A DNA stretch of 64,000 nucleotides, taken from NCBI RefSeq assembly GCF_003334335.1, contig NZ_QOWQ01000006.1. One strand, written 5' to 3'. The DNA comes from Escherichia coli (lineage in GTDB: Bacteria > Pseudomonadota > Gammaproteobacteria > Enterobacterales > Enterobacteriaceae). A program made the position numbers and the translations under genes. Shown here one piece after another: positions 7,199-32,931 of this stretch (the stretch's first letter is position 1; every line of letters starts with the position of its first letter). The notes below the pieces were generated by a model, which worked only from the letters and a program-made list of their open reading frames with translations, was not told the origin of the DNA and made no database searches.

Positions 7199-7410
7199 TT
7201 GCCTGATGCGCTACGCTCATCAGGCCTACAAAATCTATTGCAACATGTTGAATCTTCGTGCGTTTGTAGGCCGGATAAGGCGTTCACGACGCATCCGGCA
7301 TTAGGTGCTCAATGCCTGATGCGCTACGCTTATCAGGCCTACAAAATCTATTGCAACATGTTGAATCTTCATGCGTTTGTAGGCGGATAAGGCGTTTTCG
7401 CCACATCAGG
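7199..7410. repeat. REP/BIME cluster: two near-identical ~105-bp units, each holding inverted REP palindromes
   Basis: Unit gcctgatgcgctacgct(c/t)atcaggcctacaaaatctattgcaacatgttgaatcttc(g/a)tgcgtttgtaggc... occurs at about 7199-7311 and again at 7313-7410; classic REP core. Confidence 0.7.
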
Positions 7411-9071: not shown

Positions 9072-10112
9072 TCATTTATCGGAAGACGCCTGCCACAGAT
9101 TCAGCTCGCCATCGGCGATATGCTGATCAATCTGCGCCAGCTCCTTGGTGCTAAATGTCAGATTATTCAGCGCCTGCACGTTCTCCTCTAGTTGCTCCGC
9201 GCGGCTGGCACCAATCAATACCGACGTCACGCGATCATCTTTCAGCAACCAGCTTAACGCCATTTGCGCCATTGATTGTCCACGCTGCTGTGCCATTTCA
9301 TTCAATAAGCGCAGGCTGTTGAGGTTGGCTTCGGTAAGCATTTTCGGTGTCAGACCACGAACTTTATTCCCTTCACGATGCATCCGTGAATCTTGCGGAA
9401 TGCCGTTGAGATATTTTCCGGTCAGCAATCCCTGAGCCAGAGGAGTAAAGGCAATACAGCCCACGCCGTTATTTTGCAGGGTATCCAGCAGGCCGCTTTT
9501 ATCCACCCAGCGGTTCAGTAAATTGTACGAAGGTTGATGAATTAACAGCGGAATTTTCCACTCGCGCAGCAACTCGACCATTTTTTGCGTCCGCTCTGGC
9601 GAGTAAGAGGAGATCCCGACATACAGCGCCTTACCGCTTTGTACCGCATGAGCCAGCGCAGAGGCGGTTTCTTCCATCGGCGTATTTTCATCGACGCGAT
9701 GAGAGTAAAAGATATCGACATACTCAAGCCCCATACGCTTCAGGCTTTGGTCGAGGCTGGCGAGCAGGTATTTACGTGAACCGCCAGAGCCGTAAGGGCC
9801 GGGCCACATATCGTAGCCAGCCTTGGTAGAGATAATCAGTTCATCGCGATAAGCGGCAAAATCCTCCCGCAGCAGGCGACCAAAGTTCTCTTCTGCGCTT
9901 CCTGGAGGCGGCCCGTAATTGTTGGCTAAATCAAAGTGCGTAATGCCCAAATCAAACGCTTTACGCAGGATCGCACGCTGTGATTCCAGCGCGTTAACGT
10001 GACCGAAATTGTGCCATAAACCGAGCGATAACGCGGGCAGGCGTAAACCACTTTTTCCGCAATAGCGGTATTGCATCTGCCCGTAACGTTCGGGATTCGC
10101 TAACCAGACCAT
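9072..10112 (-). CDS. yghZ: L-glyceraldehyde 3-phosphate reductase (aldo-keto reductase)
   Basis: 346-aa ORF with aldo-keto reductase family sequence. Confidence 0.9.
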   Translation of the reverse strand: MVWLANPERYGQMQYRYCGKSGLRLPALSLGLWHNFGHVNALESQRAILRKAFDLGITHFDLANNYGPPPGSAEENFGRLLREDFAAYRDELIISTKAGYDMWPGPYGSGGSRKYLLASLDQSLKRMGLEYVDIFYSHRVDENTPMEETASALAHAVQSGKALYVGISSYSPERTQKMVELLREWKIPLLIHQPSYNLLNRWVDKSGLLDTLQNNGVGCIAFTPLAQGLLTGKYLNGIPQDSRMHREGNKVRGLTPKMLTEANLNSLRLLNEMAQQRGQSMAQMALSWLLKDDRVTSVLIGASRAEQLEENVQALNNLTFSTKELAQIDQHIADGELNLWQASSDK

Positions 10113-10268: not shown

Positions 10269-11153
10269 ATGCCGCGTTTAACCGCCAAAGATTTCCCACA
10301 AGAGTTGCTGGATTACTATGACTATTACGCTCACGGGAAAATCTCGAAACGTGAGTTCCTCAACCTTGCGGCGAAGTGCGGTAGGCGGGATGACGGCATT
10401 AGCGTTGTTTGATTTGCTCAAGCCAAATTATGCGCTGGCGACTCAGGTAGAGTTTACCGACCCGGAAATTGTTGCTGAGTACATCACGTATCCTTCGCCA
10501 AATGGTCACGGCGAGGTGCGGGGTTATCTGGTGAAGCCCGCAAAGATGAGCGGCAAAACGCCAGCCGTAGTGGTGGTGCATGAGAATCGTGGACTGAATC
10601 CGTATATCGAAGATGTGGCACGGCGAGTGGCGAAGGCGGGGTATATCGCCCTGGCACCTGACGGCTTAAGTTCCGTTGGAGGTTATCCGGGAAATGATGA
10701 TAAAGGTCGTGAGCTGCAACAGCAGGTTGATCCAACAAACTGATGAATGATTTCTTTGCCGCAATTGAGTTTATGCAACGCTATCCGCAAGCGACAGGCA
10801 AAGTGGGTATTACCGGATTTTGCTATGGCGGTGGCGTATCGAACGCGGCGGCTGTCGCGTATCCGGAACTGGCCTGCGCGGTGCCGTTTTATGGTCGTCA
10901 GGCACCCACTGCCGATGTGGCGAAGATTGAAGCGCCTTTACTACTCCACTTCGCGGAACTGGACACCCGAATCAACGAGGGCTGGCCTGCTTACGAGGCG
11001 GCGTTGAAAGCCAATAATAAGGTTTATGAGGCGTATATCTATCCGGGGGTTAATCACGGATTCCATAATGATTCCACGCCCCGTTATGACAAATCTGCCG
11101 CCGATCTTGCCTGGCAAAGGACACTGAAATGGTTCGATAAATATCTCTCCTGA
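10269..11153 (+). pseudogene. yghX: dienelactone-hydrolase-family protein disrupted by two frameshifts
   Basis: Reading frame jumps between three ORFs (10224..10412, 10318..10743, 10743..11153); GAGGA RBS before ATG at 10269; second shift lies in the A-run ccaacaaactgatg near 10740. Confidence 0.65.
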
Positions 11154-21637: not shown

Positions 21638-23137
21638 ATGCTAAATTTATTTGTTGGCCTTGATATATACACAGGGCTTTTGTTATTGCTTGCTCTGGCA
21701 TTTGTGTTGTTCTACGAAGCAATCAATGGTTTTCATGACACGGCGAATGCGGTGGCAGCCGTTATTTATACTCGTGCCATGCAACCACAACTTGCTGTGG
21801 TGATGGCGGCATTTTTTAACTTTTTTGGCGTGTTATTGGGCGGACTTAGCGTTGCCTATGCCATTGTCCATATGTTGCCAACCGATTTGTTGCTGAATAT
21901 GGGGTCAACCCACGGCCTGGCGATGGTCTTTTCCATGCTGCTGGCGGCGATTATCTGGAACCTGGGAACGTGGTTCTTCGGTTTACCGGCCTCCAGTTCG
22001 CACACCTTGATTGGTGCGATTATCGGCATCGGTTTAACCAACGCGCTGTTAACCGGCTCATCGGTGATGGATGCGTTAAACCTGCGTGAAGTGACCAAAA
22101 TTTTCTCCTCGCTGATTGTTTCCCCTATCGTCGGCCTGGTCATTGCGGGAGGCCTGATATTCCTGCTGCGACGCTACTGGAGCGGGACGAAAAAGCGTGA
22201 CCGTATTCACCGCATTCCGGAAGATCGCAAAAAGAAAAAAGGCAAACGTAAACCGCCATTCTGGACGCGTATTGCGCTGATTGTTTCCGCTGCGGGCGTG
22301 GCGTTTTCGCACGGCGCGAACGACGGACAAAAAGGGATCGGCCTGGTAATGCTGGTACTGGTGGGGATTGCCCCTGCTGGCTTCGTCGTCAATATGAATG
22401 CGTCCGGCTATGAAATTACCCGTACCCGCGATGCCGTTACCAACTTCGAACACTACCTGCAACAGCATCCTGAACTGCCGCAGAAGTTGATTGCGATGGA
22501 ACCTCCATTGCCTGCAGCATCGACTGATGGCACGCAAGTAACAGAGTTTCACTGTCATCCGGCAAATACCTTTGATGCTATTGCGCGCGTTAAAACGATG
22601 CTGCCAGGCAATATGGAAAGTTACGAGCCGTTAAGCGTGAGTCAGCGCAGCCAGCTGCGCCGCATTATGCTGTGCATCTCTGATACCTCCGCGAAGCTAG
22701 CGAAACTGCCAGGCGTCAGTAAAGAAGACCAGAACCTGCTGAAAAAACTTCGCAGCGATATGTTAAGCACCATTGAGTACGCTCCGGTGTGGATCATCAT
22801 GGCGGTAGCACTGGCGCTCGGCATTGGCACCATGATTGGCTGGCGTCGTGTAGCGATGACCATCGGTGAGAAGATTGGTAAGCGCGGCATGACGTATGCG
22901 CAAGGCATGGCGGCACAAATGACGGCGGCAGTGTCTATCGGTCTTGCCAGTTATATTGGGATGCCCGTCTCCACAACACACGTCCTCTCGTCTGCAGTTG
23001 CAGGGACGATGGTGGTGGACGGCGGTGGGTTACAGCGTAAAACGGTAACCAGCATCCTGATGGCGTGGGTATTTACTTTACCGGCGGCAATTTTTCTTTC
23101 TGGTGGGCTGTACTGGATAGCATTGCAGTTGATTTAA
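21638..23137 (+). CDS. pitB: low-affinity inorganic phosphate transporter
   Basis: 499 aa; PiT family membrane protein with duplicated [12 protein letters not shown] motifs; AT-rich upstream region. Confidence 0.9.
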
Positions 23138-23146
23138 CCTTCCTGA

Positions 23147-23185
23147 AAATGCCCGGTCCTGGCGATCGGGCATTTCCATTTTTGA
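23147..23185. terminator. stem-loop between convergent pitB and yghT
   Basis: aaatgcccg-(loop)-cgggcattt followed by ccattttt. Confidence 0.5.
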
Positions 23186-23878
23186 CTAGTGATAACCACG
23201 CGCGGTCATAAAATCCGTAATCGCTTTTTCTGCATCAACCAACACCTGTTCCAGTGGCTGATTGGCATCGATATCAACCAGTTGTGCACCACCAAAGGTT
23301 AACTGTGGCGTTATGGCAATCTTCCTCGCCAGCGATTCCCGTTTATGGTCGGGTTTACGTGCACAGGCAACTTCAAGGTCAACATTGAGTTTGATGACCA
23401 GATCAGGCTTATGGCTCGCCATCCAGTGAAACGCTTTACGTTCCTGGCTTGCCAGCCATGAGACAAAACGACCACCTTCAACGTTAGGTGGGAACACCGT
23501 ACCATCGTAAGCGCCAGGAATTTGGTCCTGAGGATAACGGTCGGTTAGAACAATTAACCCGCGACGACGACAGGCAAGCATATGACGAAAGCGCAGTAAG
23601 CGACGGGCGACAAACGCTGTAATTACCAGCGCCGGAACTGGTCCAGGCAATTTTTTTGCTGTTTTCACCTGATTTCGTTCAATTGTTTTATGTAAGGATT
23701 TTCCCATCAACGGTAATTTTGTCACTGCACGACCGACATTTCCGGCCTGTTTTCCTAAATGAACTCTTTCGGCAGCACCATATTTTTCGACAACGGTAAT
23801 AAGATGTTCACACACCGTTGACTTGCCTGAACCATCGCTACCAATAACGGCAATTAATGGAGGTGTTATTGACTGCAT
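23186..23878 (-). CDS. yghT: P-loop NTPase, kinase-like (Walker A plus DRYP motif)
   Basis: 230 aa; [11 protein letters not shown]alker [10 protein letters not shown] motif; paralogous to yghS and yghR. Confidence 0.8.
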
Positions 23879-24051
23879 GAATATATCCTTTAATTTAAAT
23901 ATCCATTAAAAATATTTATTTGGTTAATATGTTTTTATGAAAGCGTAATTCAGGTCAATGTCACAATTAACCATTGTCACAATAAGGTTGAACGGATATT
24001 CTGAGCACGGACCACGTAATATTCAATACATTATTTACTGCCGGGTTTTTC

Positions 24052-24765
24052 GTGAATCAACGTAATATGTCAATAATTAATTCCACGCCAGTGCGTGTTA
24101 TTGCCATTGTAGGATGTGATGGTTCAGGTAAATCGACCCTCACGGCAAGCCTGGTAAATGAACTGGCAGCAAGAATGCCAACAGAACACATTTATCTCGG
24201 GCAATCGTCCGGGCGAATTGGCGAATGGATTTCACAGCTCCCTGTTATTGGCGCACCTTTTGGGCGTTATCTGCGAAGTAAAGCGGCACATGTGCACGAA
24301 AAGCCCTCAACACCGCCTGGCAATATTACTGCACTGGTTATCTATCTGCTTTCCTGCTGGCGGGCGTACAAGTTTCGCAAAATGTTGTGTAAAAGCCAGC
24401 AAGGCTTTCTGCTCATCACCGACCGCTACCCGCAGGTTGAAGTGCCGGGGTTTCGCTTTGATGGCCCGCAATTGGCAAAAACCACGGGCGGTAACGGTTG
24501 GATAAAAATGTTAAGGCAGCGCGAGCTGAAGCTGTACCAATGGATGGCATCTTATTTGCCCGTATTGTTGATTCGTCTTGGCATTGATGAACAAACCGCG
24601 TTTGCGCGTAAACCTGACCACCAACTGGCAGCGTTACAGGAAAAAATCGCCGTTACGCCGCAACTGACATTCAATGGCGCAAAGATCCTTGAACTGGATG
24701 GGCGACACCCCGCCGATGAAATTCTGCAAGCGTCACTACGCGCAATTCACGCCGCGCTTTCCTGA
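24052..24765 (+). CDS. yghS: P-loop NTPase, kinase-like
   Basis: 237 aa; VGCDGSGKSTL Walker A; ITDRYPQVE motif. Confidence 0.8.
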   Translation: MNQRNMSIINSTPVRVIAIVGCDGSGKSTLTASLVNELAARMPTEHIYLGQSSGRIGEWISQLPVIGAPFGRYLRSKAAHVHEKPSTPPGNITALVIYLLSCWRAYKFRKMLCKSQQGFLLITDRYPQVEVPGFRFDGPQLAKTTGGNGWIKMLRQRELKLYQWMASYLPVLLIRLGIDEQTAFARKPDHQLAALQEKIAVTPQLTFNGAKILELDGRHPADEILQASLRAIHAALS

Positions 24766-24796
24766 TCACCAAAATGGATAGGGGATGATTTAACGA

Positions 24797-25555
24797 ATGG
24801 ATGCACTACAAACTCAAACTGTTAATAGTACAACCGCGCCGCAGCCCAACTACATTCCGGGGCTGATTGCGGTGGTCGGGTGTGATGGCACCGGTAAATC
24901 CACACTGACCACCGACCTGGTGAAATCGCTGCAACAACACTGGCAAACCGAGCGGCGCTATCTGGGGCTGCTCTCCGGCGAAGACGGCGACAAAATCAAA
25001 CGATTGCCGTTGGTTGGCGTCTGGCTGGAACGGCGACTGGCGGCCAAATCCTCGAAAACCCAAAGCATGAAAACCAAATCTCCGGCGCTATGGGCGGCGG
25101 TGATTATGTACTGCTTCTCGCTGCGAAGAATGGCGAATCTACGCAAGGTTCAGCGACTGGCGCAAAGTGGCGTTCTGGTGGTCAGCGATCGCTTCCCGCA
25201 GGCTGAAATTTCGGGCTTTTATTATGATGGACCGGGGATTGGCGTCGAACGTGCGACCGGGAAAATCAGCATGTTTCTGGCGCAGCGCGAACGGCGTTTA
25301 TACCAACAAATGGCGCAATATCGCCCGGAATTAATTATTCGCCTGGGCATTGATATTGAGACTGCCATCTCCCGCAAGCCTGACCATGACTATGCCGAGC
25401 TGCAGGACAAAATCGGTGTCATGTCGAAGATTGGCTATAACGGCACAAAAATTCTTGAGATTGATTCCAGAGCGCCCTACAGCGAAGTGCTGGAACAGGC
25501 ACAGAAGGCGGTTTCTCTGGTTGCCATCGTTTCTGACCGCCGAAGTTTAACTTAA
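24797..25555 (+). CDS. yghR: P-loop NTPase, kinase-like
   Basis: 252 aa; VGCDGTGKSTL Walker A; VSDRFPQAE motif. Confidence 0.8.
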   Translation: MDALQTQTVNSTTAPQPNYIPGLIAVVGCDGTGKSTLTTDLVKSLQQHWQTERRYLGLLSGEDGDKIKRLPLVGVWLERRLAAKSSKTQSMKTKSPALWAAVIMYCFSLRRMANLRKVQRLAQSGVLVVSDRFPQAEISGFYYDGPGIGVERATGKISMFLAQRERRLYQQMAQYRPELIIRLGIDIETAISRKPDHDYAELQDKIGVMSKIGYNGTKILEIDSRAPYSEVLEQAQKAVSLVAIVSDRRSLT

Positions 25556-25600: not shown

Positions 25601-26950
25601 TTGGCGGGTTTTAACATCAAACATTGGTTTGCAGATGGCGCGTTTCGCACCATTATTCGCAATAGCGCCTGGTTAGGCTCCAGTAATGTCGTGAGCGCCT
25701 TGCTGGGTCTGTTGGCGCTCTCGTGTGCCGGTAAAGGGATGACGCCCGCCATGTTTGGCGTACTGGTGATTGTGCAATCGTACGCCAAGTCGATCAGCGA
25801 TTTTATTAAGTTTCAGACATGGCAACTGGTGGTTCAGTACGGAACACCAGCATTAACCAACAATAATCCGCAGCAATTCCGCAATGTCGTCTCATTTTCC
25901 TTCTCGCTGGATATCGTCAGCGGCGCGGTGGCGATTGTCGGTGGCATTGCCTTACTGCCATTCCTTTCCCATTCATTAGGTCTGGATGACCAAAGTTTTT
26001 GGCTGGCAGCGCTCTATTGCACGCTCATTCCTTCAATGGCTTCCTCCACGCCGACCGGCATTCTGCGTGCGGTAGATCGCTTCGATTTAATTGCTGTACA
26101 GCAGGCGACGAAACCTTTTCTGCGCGCAGCGGGGAGCGTCGTAGCCTGGTATTTTGACTTTGGTTTTGCGGGTTTTGTTATTGCCTGGTACGTGTCGAAT
26201 CTGGTTGGCGGCACCATGTACTGGTGGTTTGCCGCGCGCGAATTACGCCGCCGAAATATCCATAACGCCTTCAAATTGAATCTGTTTGAGTCTGCCCGAT
26301 ACATTAAAGGCGCGTGGAGTTTTGTCTGGTCAACCAACATTGCCCACTCCATCTGGTCGGCGCGTAACTCGTGCAGCACAGTGTTGGTGGGGATCGTGTT
26401 AGGACCCGCTGCCGCCGGGTTATTTAAAATCGCCATGACATTCTTCGACGCCGCCGGAACGCCAGCGGGTTTGCTGGGTAAAAGTTTTTACCCAGAGGTG
26501 ATGCGTTTAGATCCGCGCACCACCAGACCGTGGTTGTTAGGTGTGAAGTCCGGTTTACTGGCGGGCGGAATCGGTATTCTGGTGGCGCTCGCGGTGTTGA
26601 TCGTCGGCAAGCCGCTCATTTCGCTGGTGTTTGGCGTTAAGTATCTCGAAGCGTATGACCTGATTCAGGTGATGCTGGGCGCAATTGTGATTTCGATGCT
26701 GGGCTTCCCTCAGGAGTCATTGCTATTGATGGCGGGAAAACAGCGCGCTTTTCTCGTGGCGCAAACCATCGCCTCAATCGGCTACATCGTATTGCTGTTC
26801 ATGTTCTGTCATCTGTTTGGTGTGCTGGGAGCAGCGTTTGCTTACTTCGGTGGGCAATGTCTGGACGTGGCGCTCTCGTTAATTCCAACCTTAAAGGCAT
26901 TTTTTCAGCGCCATTCCTTGCTTTATAACGCAGCCGGAGAGAAATCCTGA
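25601..26950 (+). CDS. yghQ: MOP-superfamily (Wzx/MurJ-like) polysaccharide/lipid flippase-type membrane protein
   Basis: 449-aa polytopic membrane ORF; TTG start as listed, true start uncertain; stop overlaps next start (TGATG). Confidence 0.75.
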   Translation: MAGFNIKHWFADGAFRTIIRNSAWLGSSNVVSALLGLLALSCAGKGMTPAMFGVLVIVQSYAKSISDFIKFQTWQLVVQYGTPALTNNNPQQFRNVVSFSFSLDIVSGAVAIVGGIALLPFLSHSLGLDDQSFWLAALYCTLIPSMASSTPTGILRAVDRFDLIAVQQATKPFLRAAGSVVAWYFDFGFAGFVIAWYVSNLVGGTMYWWFAARELRRRNIHNAFKLNLFESARYIKGAWSFVWSTNIAHSIWSARNSCSTVLVGIVLGPAAAGLFKIAMTFFDAAGTPAGLLGKSFYPEVMRLDPRTTRPWLLGVKSGLLAGGIGILVALAVLIVGKPLISLVFGVKYLEAYDLIQVMLGAIVISMLGFPQESLLLMAGKQRAFLVAQTIASIGYIVLLFMFCHLFGVLGAAFAYFGGQCLDVALSLIPTLKAFFQRHSLLYNAAGEKS

Positions 26951-27774
26951 TGATGAGAAAATATTTCCCGCTTGAGGCGAGCGAGCGTCTATTTGTTGCG
27001 ATTGAAGAAGATGATGTCGTTGATGCACAGGTTAGTTTGCCGCCGACTATTGCACTAAGTTGTACCACCGAAATCATTCATGATAATTACGCGTTATGCC
27101 TGCAATTCTGGCTCAATGGCGTTGATCGTCAGGAGTTACTGCGTTTAGTTCGCAAACAAGCCAAAGGCGATGAGCTGACTGCTGATGAGCGCAAACAATT
27201 TAAATACATGCGAGCGCGCTACAAGCACCTGCGTTTTGCGCAACGGCTGTATTTAAAGAAGCATCAGGCCGGATTTTTATTCGGCAAAACGACCGTTTTT
27301 CTGGGGCGTTTTCAGGACGGCTTTCGTAACGGTAAGAAAAATATTGTGTCGTATTACGGCAACCTGTTACGGATTTATTTAAGCTCTCCGGTCTGGTCGT
27401 TGGTGAACTATTCATTACGCCATAGCCAGTTAGAAAGCGTAAGCAGTTTTATTGCCTATCGGCAAAAGCAAATGCATACCCTGAAAGAGATTATTGCCAA
27501 ACCGCGACTAACCGGTAGGGAATTTCATGATGTGCGAAAAATCATCAGCCAGCAGGTTTCTTATTACGACACCTTAAGATCGCTTGATCCTGAAAATAAA
27601 GAGGCGTTACAGATATCCCGCTTCCTCGCCGCCATTAATGGCCTGATGGGAGATAAACACGACGACATGGTGGCGGATGATATGGAAAACCGCCAGTCGT
27701 ATGATGCACCGGTGGCGCTGGATAGCGATATTCGTCAGCGCTTAGAGCTGCTGATTTCGCGTTTTCCGCTATAG
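26950..27774 (+). CDS. hypothetical protein, no recognisable domain
   Basis: 274-aa ORF translationally coupled to yghQ; basic/charged, no transmembrane segment or nucleotide-binding motif seen. Confidence 0.55.
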   Translation: MMRKYFPLEASERLFVAIEEDDVVDAQVSLPPTIALSCTTEIIHDNYALCLQFWLNGVDRQELLRLVRKQAKGDELTADERKQFKYMRARYKHLRFAQRLYLKKHQAGFLFGKTTVFLGRFQDGFRNGKKNIVSYYGNLLRIYLSSPVWSLVNYSLRHSQLESVSSFIAYRQKQMHTLKEIIAKPRLTGREFHDVRKIISQQVSYYDTLRSLDPENKEALQISRFLAAINGLMGDKHDDMVADDMENRQSYDAPVALDSDIRQRLELLISRFPL

Positions 27775-27782
27775 CCGGAGCA

Positions 27783-28346
27783 ATGATGTCATCTCGTTTG
27801 ATTATTGCGTTGATTATCATGCTCTTAGCCCCGGGTGTGCAGGCACACAATTTCGTCACTGGCAAAACGGTTACCCCTGTTTATATCCAGGAAGGCGGCG
27901 AGCTGCTTCTGAATAGCGACGACGAAATTCACTACCAAAAGTGGAACAGCACACAATTAGCGGGAAAAGTCCGCATTATTCAGTATATCGCCGGGCGTAA
28001 GTCGGCGAAGAAAAAGAACTCACTGTTAATTAAAGCGGTTGAAGCGGCAAACTTTCCGCAGGATCGTTTTCAGCCCACCACCATTGTGAACACCGATGAT
28101 GCCATCTTTGGTACTGGCTATTTTGTTGTTGGCAAAATCGAAAAAAATAAACGCCGCTATCCGTGGGCGCAATTCGTTATTGACGGCAATGGACAGGGAC
28201 GCGTTGCCTGGCGCTTGCCGGAGCAGAGTTCAACCATTCTGGTGCTGAATAAAGCCGGGCAAATTCAGTGGGCAAAGGACGGCAGCCTGACGCCGGAAGA
28301 GGTAGATCATGTCATTGCGTTGGCGCAGAAACTGATCAATGAATAA
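27783..28346 (+). CDS. YtfJ-family periplasmic protein (signal peptide)
   Basis: 187 aa; N-terminal signal peptide MMSSRLIIALIIMLLAPGVQA; motifs TTIVNTDDAI and WAKDGSLTPEEV resemble E. coli YtfJ as I recall it. Confidence 0.55.
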   Translation: MMSSRLIIALIIMLLAPGVQAHNFVTGKTVTPVYIQEGGELLLNSDDEIHYQKWNSTQLAGKVRIIQYIAGRKSAKKKNSLLIKAVEAANFPQDRFQPTTIVNTDDAIFGTGYFVVGKIEKNKRRYPWAQFVIDGNGQGRVAWRLPEQSSTILVLNKAGQIQWAKDGSLTPEEVDHVIALAQKLINE

Positions 28347-28376
28347 AAAACTCAAAGGATTGAGGGCGTTAGTGAG

Positions 28377-29447
28377 ATGAAGCTGGTTGAACACTACATC
28401 ATGCGTGGTACGCGCCGTCTGGTGCTGATTATCGTCGGTTTTCTGATCTTTATTTTCGCCAGCTACTCCGCACAGCGTTATCTGACCGAAGCGGCAAATG
28501 GGACATTAGCTCTTGATGTTGTGCTGGATATCGTTTTCTACAAAGTACTGATTGCACTGGAGATGTTGTTACCTGTTGGTCTGTATGTGTCAGTTGGCGT
28601 GACGCTAGGGCAGATGTATACCGACTCGGAAATTACCGCTATCTCTGCGGCGGGGGGCAGTCCGGGACGCTTGTACAAAGCCGTTCTTTATCTGGCGATA
28701 CCGCTAAGTATTTTTGTCACCCTTCTGTCGATGTATGGTCGTCCGTGGGCTTATGCGCAGATTTATCAACTGGAGCAGCAGTCGCAGTCGGAGCTGGATG
28801 TTCGCCAGTTGCGGGCAAAGAAATTTAACACTAACGATAACGGACGAATGATCCTTTCGCAGACGGTTGATCAGGATAATAATCGCCTGACTGACGCGCT
28901 GATTTATACTTCTACTGCCAATCGAACCCGCATTTTCCGCGCCCGTTCGGTTGATGTGGTTGACCCATCACCCGAGAAACCGACCGTTATGTTGCACAAC
29001 GGCACTGCCTATCTTATCGATCATCAGGGGCGTGATGACAACGAACAGATCTACCGTAATCTGCAATTACATCTGAATCCGCTGGATCAAAGCCCTAACG
29101 TCAAACGCAAAGCGAAATCGGTCACGGAGCTGGCGCGCTCCGTCTTTCCAGCCGATCATGCCGAACTGCAATGGCGGCAAAGCCGTGGCCTGACCGCATT
29201 GTTGATGGCGCTGCTGGCCATTTCATTAAGTCGGGTAAAACCGCGGCAAGGGCGATTTTCAACGTTATTGCCACTGACGTTGCTGTTTATTGCCATTTTT
29301 TATGGCGGTGACGTCTGCCGTACGCTGGTGGCTAACGGCGCGATTCCCCTCATTCCTGGTTTGTGGTTAGTACCCGGACTCATGCTAATGGGCCTGCTGA
29401 TGCTGGTCGCACGCGACTTCTCTTTGCTGCAGAAATTTTCCCGATGA
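28377..29447 (+). CDS. LptF/LptG-family (YjgP/YjgQ) permease
   Basis: 356 aa; N-terminal transmembrane helices, large periplasmic insert, C-terminal transmembrane helices, as in LptF/LptG. Confidence 0.7.
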   Translation: MKLVEHYIMRGTRRLVLIIVGFLIFIFASYSAQRYLTEAANGTLALDVVLDIVFYKVLIALEMLLPVGLYVSVGVTLGQMYTDSEITAISAAGGSPGRLYKAVLYLAIPLSIFVTLLSMYGRPWAYAQIYQLEQQSQSELDVRQLRAKKFNTNDNGRMILSQTVDQDNNRLTDALIYTSTANRTRIFRARSVDVVDPSPEKPTVMLHNGTAYLIDHQGRDDNEQIYRNLQLHLNPLDQSPNVKRKAKSVTELARSVFPADHAELQWRQSRGLTALLMALLAISLSRVKPRQGRFSTLLPLTLLFIAIFYGGDVCRTLVANGAIPLIPGLWLVPGLMLMGLLMLVARDFSLLQKFSR

Positions 29448-30523
29448 ATGTTTTCAGCCGCTATTTAATCCGTCATCTCTTTCTCGGTTTTGCCGCCGCC
29501 GCAGGGCTATTGCTGCCGCTTTTTACCACCTTCAACCTGATTAACGAACTGGATGATGTCAGCCCGGGCGGTTATCGCTGGACTCAGGCGGTGCTGGTGG
29601 TGCTAATGACCTTACCGCGCACACTGGTCGAACTTTCGCCATTTATCGCCTTATTGGGAGGGATTGTCGGCCTGGGGCAGTTATCGAAAAACAGTGAGCT
29701 TACCGCCATTCGCAGCATGGGGTTTTCTATCTTCCGTATTGCACTGGTGGCGCTGGTTGCAGGGATATTGTGGACTGTTTCGTTAGGCGCGATAGATGAG
29801 TGGGTAGCGTCGCCATTACAGCAACAGGCGTTGCAAATCAAATCGACCGCCACCGCGTTGGGGGAGGACGATGACATTACCGGCAATATGCTGTGGGCCA
29901 GGCGTGGTAATGAATTTGTGACGGTGAAATCGCTGAACGAGCAGGGCCAGCCGGTGGGCGTGGAGATTTTTCATTATCGCGACGATCTCTCGCTCGAATC
30001 CTACATTTATGCACGCAGTGCCACCATTGAAGACGACAAAACGTGGATCCTGCATGGTGTGAATCATAAAAAATGGCTGAATGGCAAAGAAACGCTGGAA
30101 ACATTAGATAATCTTGCCTGGCAATCGGCCTTCACCAGTATGGATCTTGAAGAGTTATCAATGCCGGGCAATACTTTTTCTGTCCGTCAGCTTAATCATT
30201 ACATCCATTATTTGCAGGAAACCGGGCAACCCAGCAGCGAATACCGCCTTGCACTGTGGGAAAAACTGGGGCAACCCATCCTGACCCTGGCGATGATTTT
30301 GCTGGCTGTGCCGTTTACCTTTAGCGCCCCGCGCTCGCCAGGGATGGGTAGCCGTCTCGCTGTAGGTGTCATCGTTGGCTTACTCACCTGGATCAGCTAT
30401 CAAATCATGGTCAATCTGGGATTGCTATTTGCGTTGAGCGCACCTGTTACCGCGCTCGGTTTACCGATAGCGTTTGTGCTGGTGGCGTTGAGCCTGGTGT
30501 ATTGGTATGACAGACAACATTAA
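29444..30523 (+). CDS. LptF/LptG-family (YjgP/YjgQ) permease, second paralog
   Basis: ORF 29363..30523; start placed at MNVFSRYLIRHLF (ATG 29444 overlaps upstream stop, ATGA); same topology as previous gene. Confidence 0.7.
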   Translation: MNVFSRYLIRHLFLGFAAAAGLLLPLFTTFNLINELDDVSPGGYRWTQAVLVVLMTLPRTLVELSPFIALLGGIVGLGQLSKNSELTAIRSMGFSIFRIALVALVAGILWTVSLGAIDEWVASPLQQQALQIKSTATALGEDDDITGNMLWARRGNEFVTVKSLNEQGQPVGVEIFHYRDDLSLESYIYARSATIEDDKTWILHGVNHKKWLNGKETLETLDNLAWQSAFTSMDLEELSMPGNTFSVRQLNHYIHYLQETGQPSSEYRLALWEKLGQPILTLAMILLAVPFTFSAPRSPGMGSRLAVGVIVGLLTWISYQIMVNLGLLFALSAPVTALGLPIAFVLVALSLVYWYDRQH

Positions 30524-30524
30524 A

Positions 30525-30551
30525 CCCGCCGTGGCGCAACACCACGGCGGG
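30525..30551. terminator. GC-rich hairpin between convergent operons (probable bidirectional terminator)
   Basis: cccgccgtgg-cgcaacac-ccacggcggg lies between the LptG-like stop (30523) and the reconstructed aminotransferase stop (30558). Confidence 0.5.
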
Positions 30552-30557
30552 CTCACA

Positions 30558-31737
30558 TTACTGCTTCAGAGTAGCAAATGCCTGAATGATGGCATCGATT
30601 TGCTCACGACTGTGAGCAGCGTTTACGCTACAGCGCAGCAGCGTGATGCCTGCAGGCGCGGCAGGTGGCAGGTGGCAGGATAAGATTCACATAAACGCCC
30701 AGCGAAATAAGCTCGCGCCAGATGCGTAAACCGTCCTCTTTCGAACCGATTATTACCGGCACTACCGGGCTAATATGTGAACTTAACTCATAACCCAGTT
30801 TTTGCAGACCGTCATACAGATGGTTGGCATTATCCATCAGCTTTTGCCGCAGCTCTGGTTGTGTGGCAATAGTTCTTAACGACGAGCGCACGGTCGCAAT
30901 GCAGGACGGAGAAGGAGAGGCGGTAAAAATATACGGGCGGCTGCCGTAGCGCAGCACTTCCATCGCTTCCGAACCGACAGCAAAACCGCCAATCGAGGCC
31001 AGACTTTTACTGAAGGTGCCAACGATAATATCCACATCATCTTCAACGCCGACAGCTTCAGCCAGTCCGCGCCCCGTTGCGCCTAACACGCCAAACGAAT
31101 GCGCTTCATCGACAATCAAATAACCACCGAGACGACGTTTGATATCAACAATTTCCGCTAACGGCGCAACGTCACCGAGCATGCTGTAGATACCCTCAAC
31201 GATGATAATCGCCTCTTTCGCCCGTTCACCGAGGCGAACCATGCGCCGTTCCAGATCTTTAGCATCGTTATGGCGGAAACGAATAATTTCCGCGCCACCG
31301 AGAGAACAGGCGTCATAAATACTGGCGTGGCTGTCGGCATCCAGTAACACCACGGCGTTATGGTCGGCAAGTGCGCTGATGACGCCTAAATTAGCGGTAT
31401 AACCGGTTGAAAAAACGATAGCGGTAGGGCGATTGAAAAACTCGGCAATCTCTTTCTCTAACGCCAGGTGCGGCGCATAACTGCCGTTTGCCATACGAGA
31501 ACCGGTGGTGCCGGTACCTTGGGCCGCTAACGCGGCCTGACCTTCGCTGATGGCATCATGATTAAAGGTTAAACCGAGATAATTATTGGTCCCGGCCAGA
31601 ATCACTTTTTTATTGCCGATCCGGCCTTCGGTGGCGGAATACACTTCATCAATACAGGTGCCAAACGGTGTTAACCCGTTGTCACTAAATTGCAGTCGCT
31701 CGCCAGCAAGGCGCGCATATTTATCGTATAGCCCCAT
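30558..31737 (-). CDS. alpha-oxoamine synthase (serine palmitoyltransferase/BioF/KBL family), frameshifted near the 3' end; longest intact frame is 30628..31737
   Basis: PLP-lysine motif GTFSKSLASIGGF; listed ORF ends ...ILPPATCRACRHHAAAL; a 7-bp tandem duplication at about 30661-30674 shifts frame; removing one copy gives ...PPAAPAGITLLRCSVNAAHSREQIDAIIQAFATLKQ; ATG overlaps ACP stop (TAATG). Confidence 0.75.
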
Positions 31738-31985
31738 TATTTATTCTCCAGCCATGGAAGTAGAGTTTCCATTAATTGCGCAGGGGTTTTGACATCCAGC
31801 AGAATATTAATAGGAATGGAAATATCGAATCTGTCTTCCAGCATCATTAAGAGATCCATCACTTTGATCGACTCCAGGCCAAGATCGTTGACGAGATCGC
31901 TGTCGGGCTTAATTTCCACACCGTTTTCGACCAAATCCTGTAAACAGGAAAGGATGTAATCCATTACTATTTCACGATTTACCAT
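31737..31985 (-). CDS. acyl carrier protein
   Basis: 82-aa acidic ORF with phosphopantetheine attachment motif DLGLESIK. Confidence 0.8.
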   Translation of the reverse strand: MVNREIVMDYILSCLQDLVENGVEIKPDSDLVNDLGLESIKVMDLLMMLEDRFDISIPINILLDVKTPAQLMETLLPWLENK

Positions 31986-32016
31986 AGAAACGTTAACACA
32001 CCTTTAAACAAGACAA

Positions 32017-32931
32017 TCAAAATAGCCCGTTGCGTAATGCGTGTTCCAGGCTAATCCCGGGAAACCAATTAATATCTTCAGAAATACGGTTATTACTTGC
32101 CGACCAGTCGGCGTGGGTTAATTCACGAATTTTCGAGCGGGTCAGCATAGGTTCTTTACCTGCCAGGCGACTCAACGCGGTACTGATATCCGCAAGGCCG
32201 GTGAGTACCGGCAGAGGAATGCCAACCATTCGCACGGAACCGCAACGGGCGTCGGCGGCAAGTTGCTGTACGCGTTGCCAGTCATAGCCGCCGGCGACGC
32301 CATCGCATAATTCATAGGTTTGCGTCTGTATAGTTTCGGCGCTTAACCACTGACCCACTGCTTGCGCGAAATCGGTGACGTGCAGAAAAGAGAGCTGTGT
32401 ATCTGGCGCACCAAGTCGTGGCAGCAGGCCGCGCAGCATCCAGTCAAACAGCGGTTTTAACTCTTTATCGCCGGGACCATACACGGCTGTCGGGCGAAAA
32501 ACGCCCAGCGTAATTTCGTCCGCCATTGCTGCCAGTCGTTGCTCGGCGACGTATTTGGATTTTGCATACCAGGAGAGCTCGGGATGGCGCGCCGCCAGCG
32601 AAGAGATAAACAGAAAACGTTGGCAAAAGCCGCTCTCTTTTGCTGCTTGCATCAGGCGCAGGCTGCCGTCAACGTTACAGCGGGTGAAAATCTCTTCTTT
32701 GTGCCCGCGCACTTGCCCGGCGCAATGGACCACTACGCTGGCTCCGGCAACCAGCTCGCTAAGTGAATGAGTATCTTCCAGCGAACCGCGCACCCAGGTG
32801 AGATTATCATTGACGTGAGCGCGGGCAGTACGCGTCAATGCGCGAACGTGAAAGCCGCGGGCGAGCAGGTTATCGATAATATATTTACCGATAAACCCGG
32901 TAGCGCCCGTCACCGCGACAGTTTGATTCAT
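32017..32931 (-). CDS. NAD(P)-dependent epimerase/dehydratase-family oxidoreductase (candidate keto-reductase)
   Basis: 304 aa; Rossmann motif VTGATGFIG; catalytic YAKSK (YxxxK); ATG overlaps upstream stop. Confidence 0.75.
   Translation of the reverse strand: MNQTVAVTGATGFIGKYIIDNLLARGFHVRALTRTARAHVNDNLTWVRGSLEDTHSLSELVAGASVVVHCAGQVRGHKEEIFTRCNVDGSLRLMQAAKESGFCQRFLFISSLAARHPELSWYAKSKYVAEQRLAAMADEITLGVFRPTAVYGPGDKELKPLFDWMLRGLLPRLGAPDTQLSFLHVTDFAQAVGQWLSAETIQTQTYELCDGVAGGYDWQRVQQLAADARCGSVRMVGIPLPVLTGLADISTALSRLAGKEPMLTRSKIRELTHADWSASNNRISEDINWFPGISLEHALRNGLF

Follow-up and report, generated by a model that had tools for sequence, protein, structure and literature searches.

Three thymidylate kinase-fold paralogs, YghT, YghS and YghR, encoded at one end of a sphingolipid gene cluster in Escherichia coli

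The 64-kb stretch of Escherichia coli DNA analyzed here (the window, to which all positions refer unless another locus is named) carries three neighbouring genes, yghT, yghS and yghR, at one end of a sphingolipid gene cluster. These genes encode three intact kinase-fold paralogs that are fixed as a set and coupled genetically to genes for sphingolipid synthesis, a CHAD (conserved histidine alpha-helical) domain protein, a flippase and Lpt-like proteins. From sequence comparisons, we propose with about even confidence that YghT, YghS and YghR are ATP-dependent phosphotransferases that would build a phosphate-rich head group on ceramide before its export. In this proposal, the three proteins represent a previously undescribed, internally triplicated branch of the thymidylate kinase superfamily. 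A first-pass annotation of this DNA had suggested successive phosphorylation of a lipid head group or precursor by kinase paralogs, an idea that is partly supported by the results below. The three genes are as follows.

23186-23878, minus strand: yghT, 230 aa, thymidylate kinase-fold P-loop protein
24052-24765, plus strand: yghS, 237 aa, paralog of YghT and member of the sister orthogroup to that of yghR
24797-25555, plus strand: yghR, 252 aa, paralog of YghT and YghS

Three paralogs with a thymidylate kinase fold

The DNA sequences of yghT, yghS and yghR are 100% identical to those of the K-12 genes, and their products are, from sequence, unmistakable full-length paralogs. In pairwise BLASTP alignments over approximately 218 residues, YghT and YghS are 36% identical (E-value: 6e-53), YghT and YghR 34% (E-value: 2e-47) and YghS and YghR 44.5% (E-value: 3e-63). 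The first-pass annotation had placed three paralogous open reading frames at exactly these coordinates and described two motifs in them. The Walker A motif GxDGxGKST is present in all three proteins as G[SC]DG[ST]GKST (GCDGTGKST in one of them). The second motif, given as (L/V)(T/S)DR(Y/F)PQ, is also found in each as [TS]DR[YF]PQ (one copy reads VVSDRFPQ), with the trivial correction that YghS has I at the (L/V) position. A further motif common to all three, RKPDH in the LID region, had been missed. When all six reading frames of the window were searched, each of these three motifs occurred exactly three times, in YghT, YghS and YghR only. The proteins are strongly basic, with pI values of 9.6-9.9 (family medians 9.6-10.0).

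An AlphaFold2 model of YghT was built with 46 diverse homologs (pLDDT 92.5, pTM 0.88). Following a Foldseek search with this model, thymidylate kinases (TMPKs) were the best fold match, at 20-25% identity, and a cPPK3 homolog of solved structure was the second-best structural match. Comparison of the family profile with PDB sequences gave a similar result: TMPKs were matched with an E-value of 5e-11, aligned over the P-loop, the helix-Arg/DRY region and the LID, while the match to the cPPK3 homolog 2plr was weaker (E-value: 1e-4) and covered the P-loop stretch alone. YghT, YghS and YghR have the P-loop, DR(Y/H) motif and LID of the dTMPK fold, so that the earlier guess of a nucleoside/nucleotide-kinase fold is borne out; an ABC-type or other non-kinase NTPase class is excluded by the fold. 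The proteins do not have the profile match or helix bundle of PPK2 (PF03976). A role in anti-phage defence was considered and rejected, as PADLOC returned P-loop-length matches alone (E-value ≥ 2e-4).

RefSeq names the products of yghS and yghT "dTMP kinase". On the available sequence evidence, YghT, YghS and YghR are not dTMP kinases in this annotated sense, because their scores fall far below the family cutoffs and because a different segment follows DRY. None of the three matched a Pfam or NCBIfam family above threshold. The best NCBIfam match, TIGR00041 (dTMP kinase), gave 25.8, 24.3 and 32.3 bits where the cutoff is 83.25, NF005923 gave 17-26 against a cutoff of 193, and the best i-Evalue for the Pfam family Thymidylate_kin (PF02223) was 0.013; the remaining matches were confined to the P-loop. 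In TMPKs, the segment after DRY holds the thymine and the sugar. An S/T..AYQ-type dTMP-binding segment is not kept at this position in any of the three orthogroups defined below, and all three have instead a loop specific to the family, in which P, Q, D-G and E are invariant. The family has an additional conserved subdomain, LGxxxGxxG...LPxxG.

These data bear directly on the explanation that the three proteins are genuine dTMP or NMP kinases that supply nucleotides for nucleotide-activated head-group donors. The RefSeq name, the TMPK fold match and the TMPK-like P-loop Asp, DR motif and LID are in its favour. We nevertheless consider it very improbable given the sub-cutoff scores and the invariant P-Q...D-G loop that replaces the post-DRY segment, and the annotation of the E. 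coli locus includes no nucleotidyltransferase. E. coli also has an essential tmk gene elsewhere. Caution about the name is further advised by the dTMPK-annotated paralogs of Sulfolobus, which turned out to be a polyphosphate kinase (PMC12995831).

Conservation and genomic neighbours of the triad

To place these genes in a wider context, relatives were collected using one genome per species (248 relatives), and the best 79 loci, all from other species, were taken with up to 10 kb per side. These loci span Enterobacterales, Xanthomonadales, several Betaproteobacteria, Halioglobus-type Gammaproteobacteria and metagenome-assembled genomes of Myxococcales and Desulfuromusa. Neighbouring genes were detected by tblastn with the E. 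coli proteins within ±10 kb. The 196 P-loop proteins encoded in these loci fall into three clean clusters, T (80 sequences), S (59) and R (57), in which S and R are sister orthogroups and T, that of YghT, is the most widely conserved. Within each orthogroup, conservation is 93-100% at catalytic-type positions, namely Walker A G-x-D-G-x-G-K, the helix Arg, D-R-x-P-Q, D-G, E, R-K-P-D-H and a Lys further downstream; for the Asp and Arg of the DR motif it is 100% in all three. T, S and R are ancient orthogroups, and none of them looks like a degenerate regulatory copy. Natural fusions join S to R (P0121) and T to R (P0122 and P0029); such fusions are classic evidence that paralogs work together.

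All three genes are present in 64 of the 79 loci, and in 61 the layout is that of E. coli, with R and S on one strand and T divergent. The gene for serine palmitoyltransferase (spt) lies within the fetched 10 kb in 50 loci, 49 of which also contain the triad. A yghQ-like flippase gene was likewise detected in 50 loci, a homolog of the CHAD-like gene in 60 (more often than spt) and LptF2/G2 genes in 39. The first-pass annotation had named absence of the lipid genes beside these kinases in other genomes as evidence against its idea; in this YghT-best, Enterobacterales-leaning sample, the co-occurrence was instead found, as the counts for spt and the triad show.

Other neighbours bear on the possible substrate. 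In 11 distant, non-enterobacterial loci (L073, where the gene lies at 9234-9977, and L047, L057, L061, L062, L071, L074, L075, L077, L080 and L081), some of them with spt, the start of the yghT homolog abuts the end of a gene for a membrane methyltransferase. The sole NCBIfam match of the two copies scanned was to LmtA, a lipid A 1-phosphate O-methyltransferase, at 112-119 bits and thus below the cutoff of 325. An LmtA-like gene in this position is a hint that points to a lipid-bound phosphate; there is none in the E. coli window. Six loci add an LptA/LptC-like protein.

Two Acetobacteraceae loci (L087, 10001-18488, and L088, 8008-12752) contain a single fused T-R gene followed by genes for a CHAD-like protein, for a flippase of the Polysacc_synt family, whose annotation is clear in L088, and for a His_Phos_1 phosphatase. 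L087 also has GT4 genes, L088 has genes for dTDP-sugar (rhamnose-type) synthesis, and neither has spt within 10 kb of the kinase gene. More distant relatives of approximately 500 aa (P0162, P0168 and P0171) carry an N-terminal domain of approximately 260 aa (residues 1-260; motif CHWKSN..L..AL.GE.D.DLLV) that has no Pfam match, and their genes immediately follow that of a Wzx-type flippase in polysaccharide loci of the Wzx/Wzy type (for example, L082, 7223-8731). In other distant relatives, the kinase domain is fused to the C-terminus of a Polysacc_synt flippase (P0219 and P0263) or to a GT4 glycosyltransferase (P0247). These shared flippase and envelope neighbours suggest that what unites the wider family is an envelope product, linked to a lipid, that needs flipping. 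In the triad-bearing lineages, this product is tied to sphingolipid genes.

The sphingolipid locus and a possible role in head-group synthesis

The "lipid locus" that the three genes had been said to flank is the known bacterial sphingolipid cluster (spt, acpR, cerR, aasR and yghO), and yghT, yghS and yghR do lie at one end of it. The window as a whole is a chromosome segment that includes dkgA, the hyb operon, gss, pitB, the ygh genes, the glc operon, sslE and gsp genes. While yghT is divergent, yghS and yghR start a seven-gene run on the plus strand, with five more genes between yghR and spt separated by short or overlapping junctions. The features of the locus are listed below.

23879-24051: divergent intergenic region between yghT and yghS, 173 bp, presumed shared control region
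25601-26950, plus strand: yghQ, 449 aa, MOP/Wzx-type flippase family (NCBIfam NF007773, 32.5 bits, a weak match)
26950-27774, plus strand: 274-aa "hypothetical protein", a divergent CHAD domain protein
27783-28346, plus strand: YtfJ-family gene, 187 aa (TIGR01626, 212 bits, above cutoff)
28377-29447, plus strand: lptF2, LptF paralog (TIGR04407, 318 bits)
29444-30523, plus strand: lptG2, LptG paralog (TIGR04408, 308 bits)
30521-30555: G+C-rich, terminator-like hairpin of 16 pairs between the convergent lptG2 and spt
30628-31737, minus strand: spt, serine palmitoyltransferase, 369 aa, frameshifted near its 3' end
31737-31985, minus strand: acpR, specialised acyl carrier protein for Spt (annotation; PMC9386255)
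32017-32931, minus strand: cerR-type reductase of the NAD-dependent epimerase/dehydratase family (annotation; PMC11087976)
32928-34616, minus strand: aasR, fatty acyl-AMP ligase/acyl-AcpR synthetase (annotation; PMC9386255)
35026-36168, plus strand: yghO, presumptive N-acyltransferase (ceramide synthase)

The five ceramide-synthesis genes are clustered in E. coli BL21 (PMC9386255). Published work also covers the existence of the cluster in E. coli B and UTI89 and assays of the Spt, AcpR and AasR proteins from E. coli (PMC9386255; bioRxiv 10.64898/2026.04.12.717747). We infer that yghO encodes the ceramide synthase of the cluster. The hairpin at 30521-30555 is likely a bidirectional terminator that marks both operon ends. 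A promoter scan of the yghT/yghS intergenic region found one sigma-70-like match (23974-24002, plus strand), no more than was found in shuffled sequence. The locus has an unremarkable base composition (0.45-0.54 GC), which therefore gives no sign of recent transfer.

The whole cluster is kept in approximately 4,000 of 5,426 complete E. coli genomes, or about three quarters. K-12 has an IS5 element beside a deletion that extends from the 3' part of yghQ to the start of yghO (L001, 17102-19296; window positions ~25601-35100) and removes the CHAD gene, the ytfJ-like gene, lptF2, lptG2, spt, acpR, cerR and aasR, leaving yghR, yghS and yghT as orphans. Knockouts of yghQ, yghR, yghS and yghT in K-12 left silkworm killing unchanged (PMC9278758), a result that is uninformative here because this strain is without the rest of the cluster. 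Overexpression of SlyA in K-12 raised yghS expression 3.1-fold, and yghS is listed as H-NS-bound (PMC5797941), which suggests that the locus is probably silenced in the laboratory. In the window itself, spt has a 7-bp tandem duplication near 30660 (30655-30675; three copies of GGCAGGT versus two) that shifts the frame of the last ~30 codons and gives an open reading frame of 369 aa versus 390. The duplication is absent from all 4,092 complete E. coli genomes with a match to this stretch (best identity 92.3%, 84 of 91 bases), and represents either a private mutation that inactivates the gene or an error in the sequence.

The 274-aa neighbour is a divergent CHAD domain protein. This assignment is based on a fold search, in which it matched solved CHAD domains with their two four-helix bundles, and on precomputed PF05235 matches in 9 of the 120 family members listed (E-value ≤ 1e-110 to the family profile). 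In Pfam searches, neither the E. coli protein nor any of 17 aligned homologs matched PF05235, and a search of PDB sequences returned no match to the E. coli protein. The invariant residues of the family are rich in His, Arg and Lys, consistent with the CHAD signature. CHAD domains are specific polyphosphate-binding modules (PMC6537752). The gene adjoins yghT homologs even in the T-only loci L047, L058, L063 and L078, and its relative in the Acetobacteraceae loci was recognised with an hhalign probability of 100. The possibility that the 274-aa protein corresponds to the N-terminal domain of the ~500-aa relatives was rejected, as the two have no BLASTP similarity.

Spt and the ceramide synthase are located in the cytoplasm, and a flippase for sphingolipids has yet to be identified (PMC11087976). 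In Caulobacter, LptF2G2 homologues are required for sphingolipid transport and bind the housekeeping LptB (bioRxiv 10.64898/2026.04.12.717747), and an anionic head group, begun by the unrelated kinase CpgB, is needed (PMC10331486). The E. coli locus has no annotated CpgB homolog, which leaves the kinase role vacant. Candidates in the locus for head-group chemistry and flipping are limited to the three kinases, the CHAD protein and YghQ, as its annotation lists none of the enzymes that serve this purpose in Caulobacter. In the pathway that we propose, YghT, YghS and YghR, which would be non-redundant and are predicted to be catalytically competent, would use ATP at the cytoplasmic face of the inner membrane, probably as a hetero-oligomer or else as a tight pathway, together with the adjacent CHAD protein. 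The acceptor would be the ceramide produced by Spt, AcpR, AasR, YghO and CerR, or a glycosylated ceramide in lineages that have a GT4 glycosyltransferase in the locus. The CHAD protein may bind or chaperone the polyanionic phosphorylated head group, YghQ would flip the finished lipid and LptF2G2 would then extract it from the inner membrane. The acceptor, the order and number of phosphorylations, the formation of a complex and the role of the CHAD protein are the inferred parts of this scheme.

A bolder version, which we offer tentatively as a minority possibility, is that the triad and the CHAD protein attach phosphate to ceramide itself as a pyro-, oligo- or polyphosphate chain. The hydroxyl could first be phosphorylated in a dNK-like step and phosphate then be added onto phosphate in TMPK-like steps; alternatively, a PPK3-like hetero-oligomer could extend the chain processively while the CHAD protein holds it.

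Several observations weigh against the proposed ceramide phosphorylation. The loci analyzed are the 80 best YghT matches, are biased to Enterobacterales and are not a genome-wide count of co-occurrence. The kinase, CHAD and flippase module also occurs without spt within 10 kb, both in the Acetobacteraceae loci with GT4 and His_Phos_1 genes and in betaproteobacterial T-only loci with GT4 and carbamoyltransferase genes, so that the acceptor may be a glycan or glycolipid rather than ceramide. The spt gene of this window is frameshifted. The invariant acidic residues (D-G and E) of the remodelled acceptor region are unexpected for a purely polyanionic acceptor. Finally, our literature search found no functional study of yghR, yghS, yghT or yghQ and no reported substrate, product or activity for any member of the family, and no sphingolipid, nor head group, reported from E. 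coli.

The linkage with flippase genes allows another explanation, in which the three proteins are not pathway enzymes but subunits of the YghQ flippase or the LptF2G2 extractor that regulate or energise it in a nucleotide-dependent way. The position of yghQ directly 3' of yghR, the distant relatives fused to or encoded directly after a flippase and the absence of an LptB from the sphingolipid locus would fit such a role. We judge it improbable, as the proteins have an NMP-kinase fold with a LID and a conserved acceptor-side subdomain rather than that of an ABC ATPase, and an active site fully conserved in three paralogs suits catalysis better than regulation. MOP flippases are not known to be ATP-driven. 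The Caulobacter LptF2G2 proteins, as noted above, bind the housekeeping LptB. An LptB-like ABC ATPase serving LptF2G2 was itself ruled out by fold and motifs: ABC_tran matches cover the P-loop alone, and YghT, YghS and YghR do not have the ABC fold with its signature motif, Q-loop and H-loop.

Four further observations concern the surroundings of these genes. The N-terminus of the YtfJ-family protein, MMSSRLIIALIIMLLAPGVQA, resembles a putative secretion signal by eye. The low-affinity phosphate transporter gene pitB (21638-23137) is convergent with yghT, with a terminator-like hairpin (23147-23175) between them; this adjacency is probably coincidental, as it is limited to 12 loci, all from close relatives (Escherichia, Pseudocitrobacter, Citrobacter and Hafnia). 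The gene yghX (~10269-11153) is annotated as a frameshifted pseudogene in both K-12 and a near-identical reference strain. The window is ~99.9% identical to strain WP5-S17-ESBL-10 except at 1-300, ~7284-7313 and 63187-64000, and that strain has the IS elements ISVsa5 and ISSfl8 near both window ends.

Significance and comparison with known systems

The y-genes are known and the cluster has been published; the module of triad, CHAD protein and flippase is newly noted here. Our literature search found no report that assigns a role to yghR, yghS or yghT, identifies the 274-aa protein as a CHAD protein, describes the conserved module or links it to PPK3. If our proposal is correct, it would reveal a second, non-homologous route to anionic bacterial sphingolipids and the first membrane-lipid context for a CHAD domain, extend the PPK3 case of "thymidylate kinase" paralogs exapted for phosphoanhydride chemistry and correct a widespread database name, "dTMP kinase". 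The genes offer a lead to the head group that the E. coli sphingolipid carries, which may plausibly be connected with polyphosphate chemistry. Deletions of yghT, yghS, yghR and the CHAD gene are simple genetic handles on this lipid and on its role in outer-membrane charge, polymyxin binding and host interaction. Should the oligophosphate version hold, many Gammaproteobacteria and Betaproteobacteria, including approximately three quarters of E. coli strains, would make a lipid-anchored oligophosphate that is flipped by a Wzx-like protein and then conveyed by Lpt-like machinery to the outer membrane. Such a lipid would give a dense negative surface charge independent of LPS, by means of enzymes non-homologous to those for the ceramide diphosphoglycerate of Caulobacter.

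The closest precedent for the gene set is PPK3. Saci_2019 and Saci_2020 of Sulfolobus acidocaldarius, annotated as thymidylate kinases, form this heteromeric polyphosphate kinase, which consists of a catalytic subunit and a regulatory subunit in which the DRX arginine is replaced; its operon also holds ppx, SixA and CHAD protein genes, and similar operons occur in some bacteria (PMC12995831). Like PPK3, the Ygh proteins are dTMPK-fold paralogs named as thymidylate kinases and encoded beside a CHAD gene and, in some loci, a histidine phosphatase gene, and the YghT model is structurally similar to the cPPK3 homolog. They differ in that there are three paralogs rather than two and none without the catalytic DR arginine, in that sequence similarity to cPPK3 is limited to the P-loop, and in that the genes lie among those for LptFG paralogs, a MOP flippase and the enzymes of sphingolipid synthesis. 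The annotation of the E. coli locus shows no PPX gene beside the kinase genes, and among the loci examined His_Phos_1 was found in the two Acetobacteraceae loci alone.

It could be argued from this likeness that YghT, YghS and YghR form a soluble, PPK3-like polyphosphate kinase hetero-oligomer, working in either direction (polyphosphate from ATP or ATP from polyphosphate), with the CHAD protein holding the polymer and the nearby lipid genes reflecting phosphate or energy supply. The frequency of the CHAD partner, the several dTMPK-fold paralogs per locus as in SaPPK3 with its CHAD, SixA and PPX genes, the His_Phos_1 (SixA/PhoE-type) gene of the Acetobacteraceae, the natural paralog fusions and the basic character of the proteins all favour this explanation. 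We consider it unlikely: the family profile is nearer to canonical TMPKs than to the cPPK3 homolog, the DR arginine is retained in every orthogroup, unlike in the PPK3 regulatory subunit, PPX is missing from the annotation of the E. coli locus, and the linkage to MOP flippase and LptFG genes and the flippase fusions of relatives are left unexplained. E. coli, moreover, already has PPK1. The Ygh proteins thus do not fit the definition of PPK3, which by analogy may serve as a precedent for phosphoanhydride chemistry on a polyanion by such a gene set and not as the Ygh family itself. Any explanation outside those considered here takes up the remaining probability.

Compared with the dTMPKs of PF02223 and TIGR00041, the Ygh proteins differ in their sub-cutoff scores, the invariant PQ...DG loop that replaces the nucleotide-monophosphate pocket, the extra LGxxxGxxG...LPxxG subdomain, their strongly basic pI and their occurrence as three fixed paralogs within an envelope-lipid locus. 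CpgB, an LCB5/diacylglycerol-kinase-family enzyme with a GGDG motif (PMC10331486), resembles them in being a soluble cytoplasmic kinase encoded in a bacterial sphingolipid locus that starts an anionic head group, the role proposed here for at least one Ygh protein. Its fold is unrelated to that of the Ygh P-loop kinases. Homology to this ceramide kinase was considered and rejected, as CpgB belongs to the DAGK family and YghT, YghS and YghR have no DAGK match. If the Ygh proteins act on ceramide, they would be a non-homologous replacement of CpgB. A P-loop kinase that phosphorylates a membrane lipid bound for the Lpt pathway is known in LpxK, the lipid A tetraacyldisaccharide 4'-kinase.

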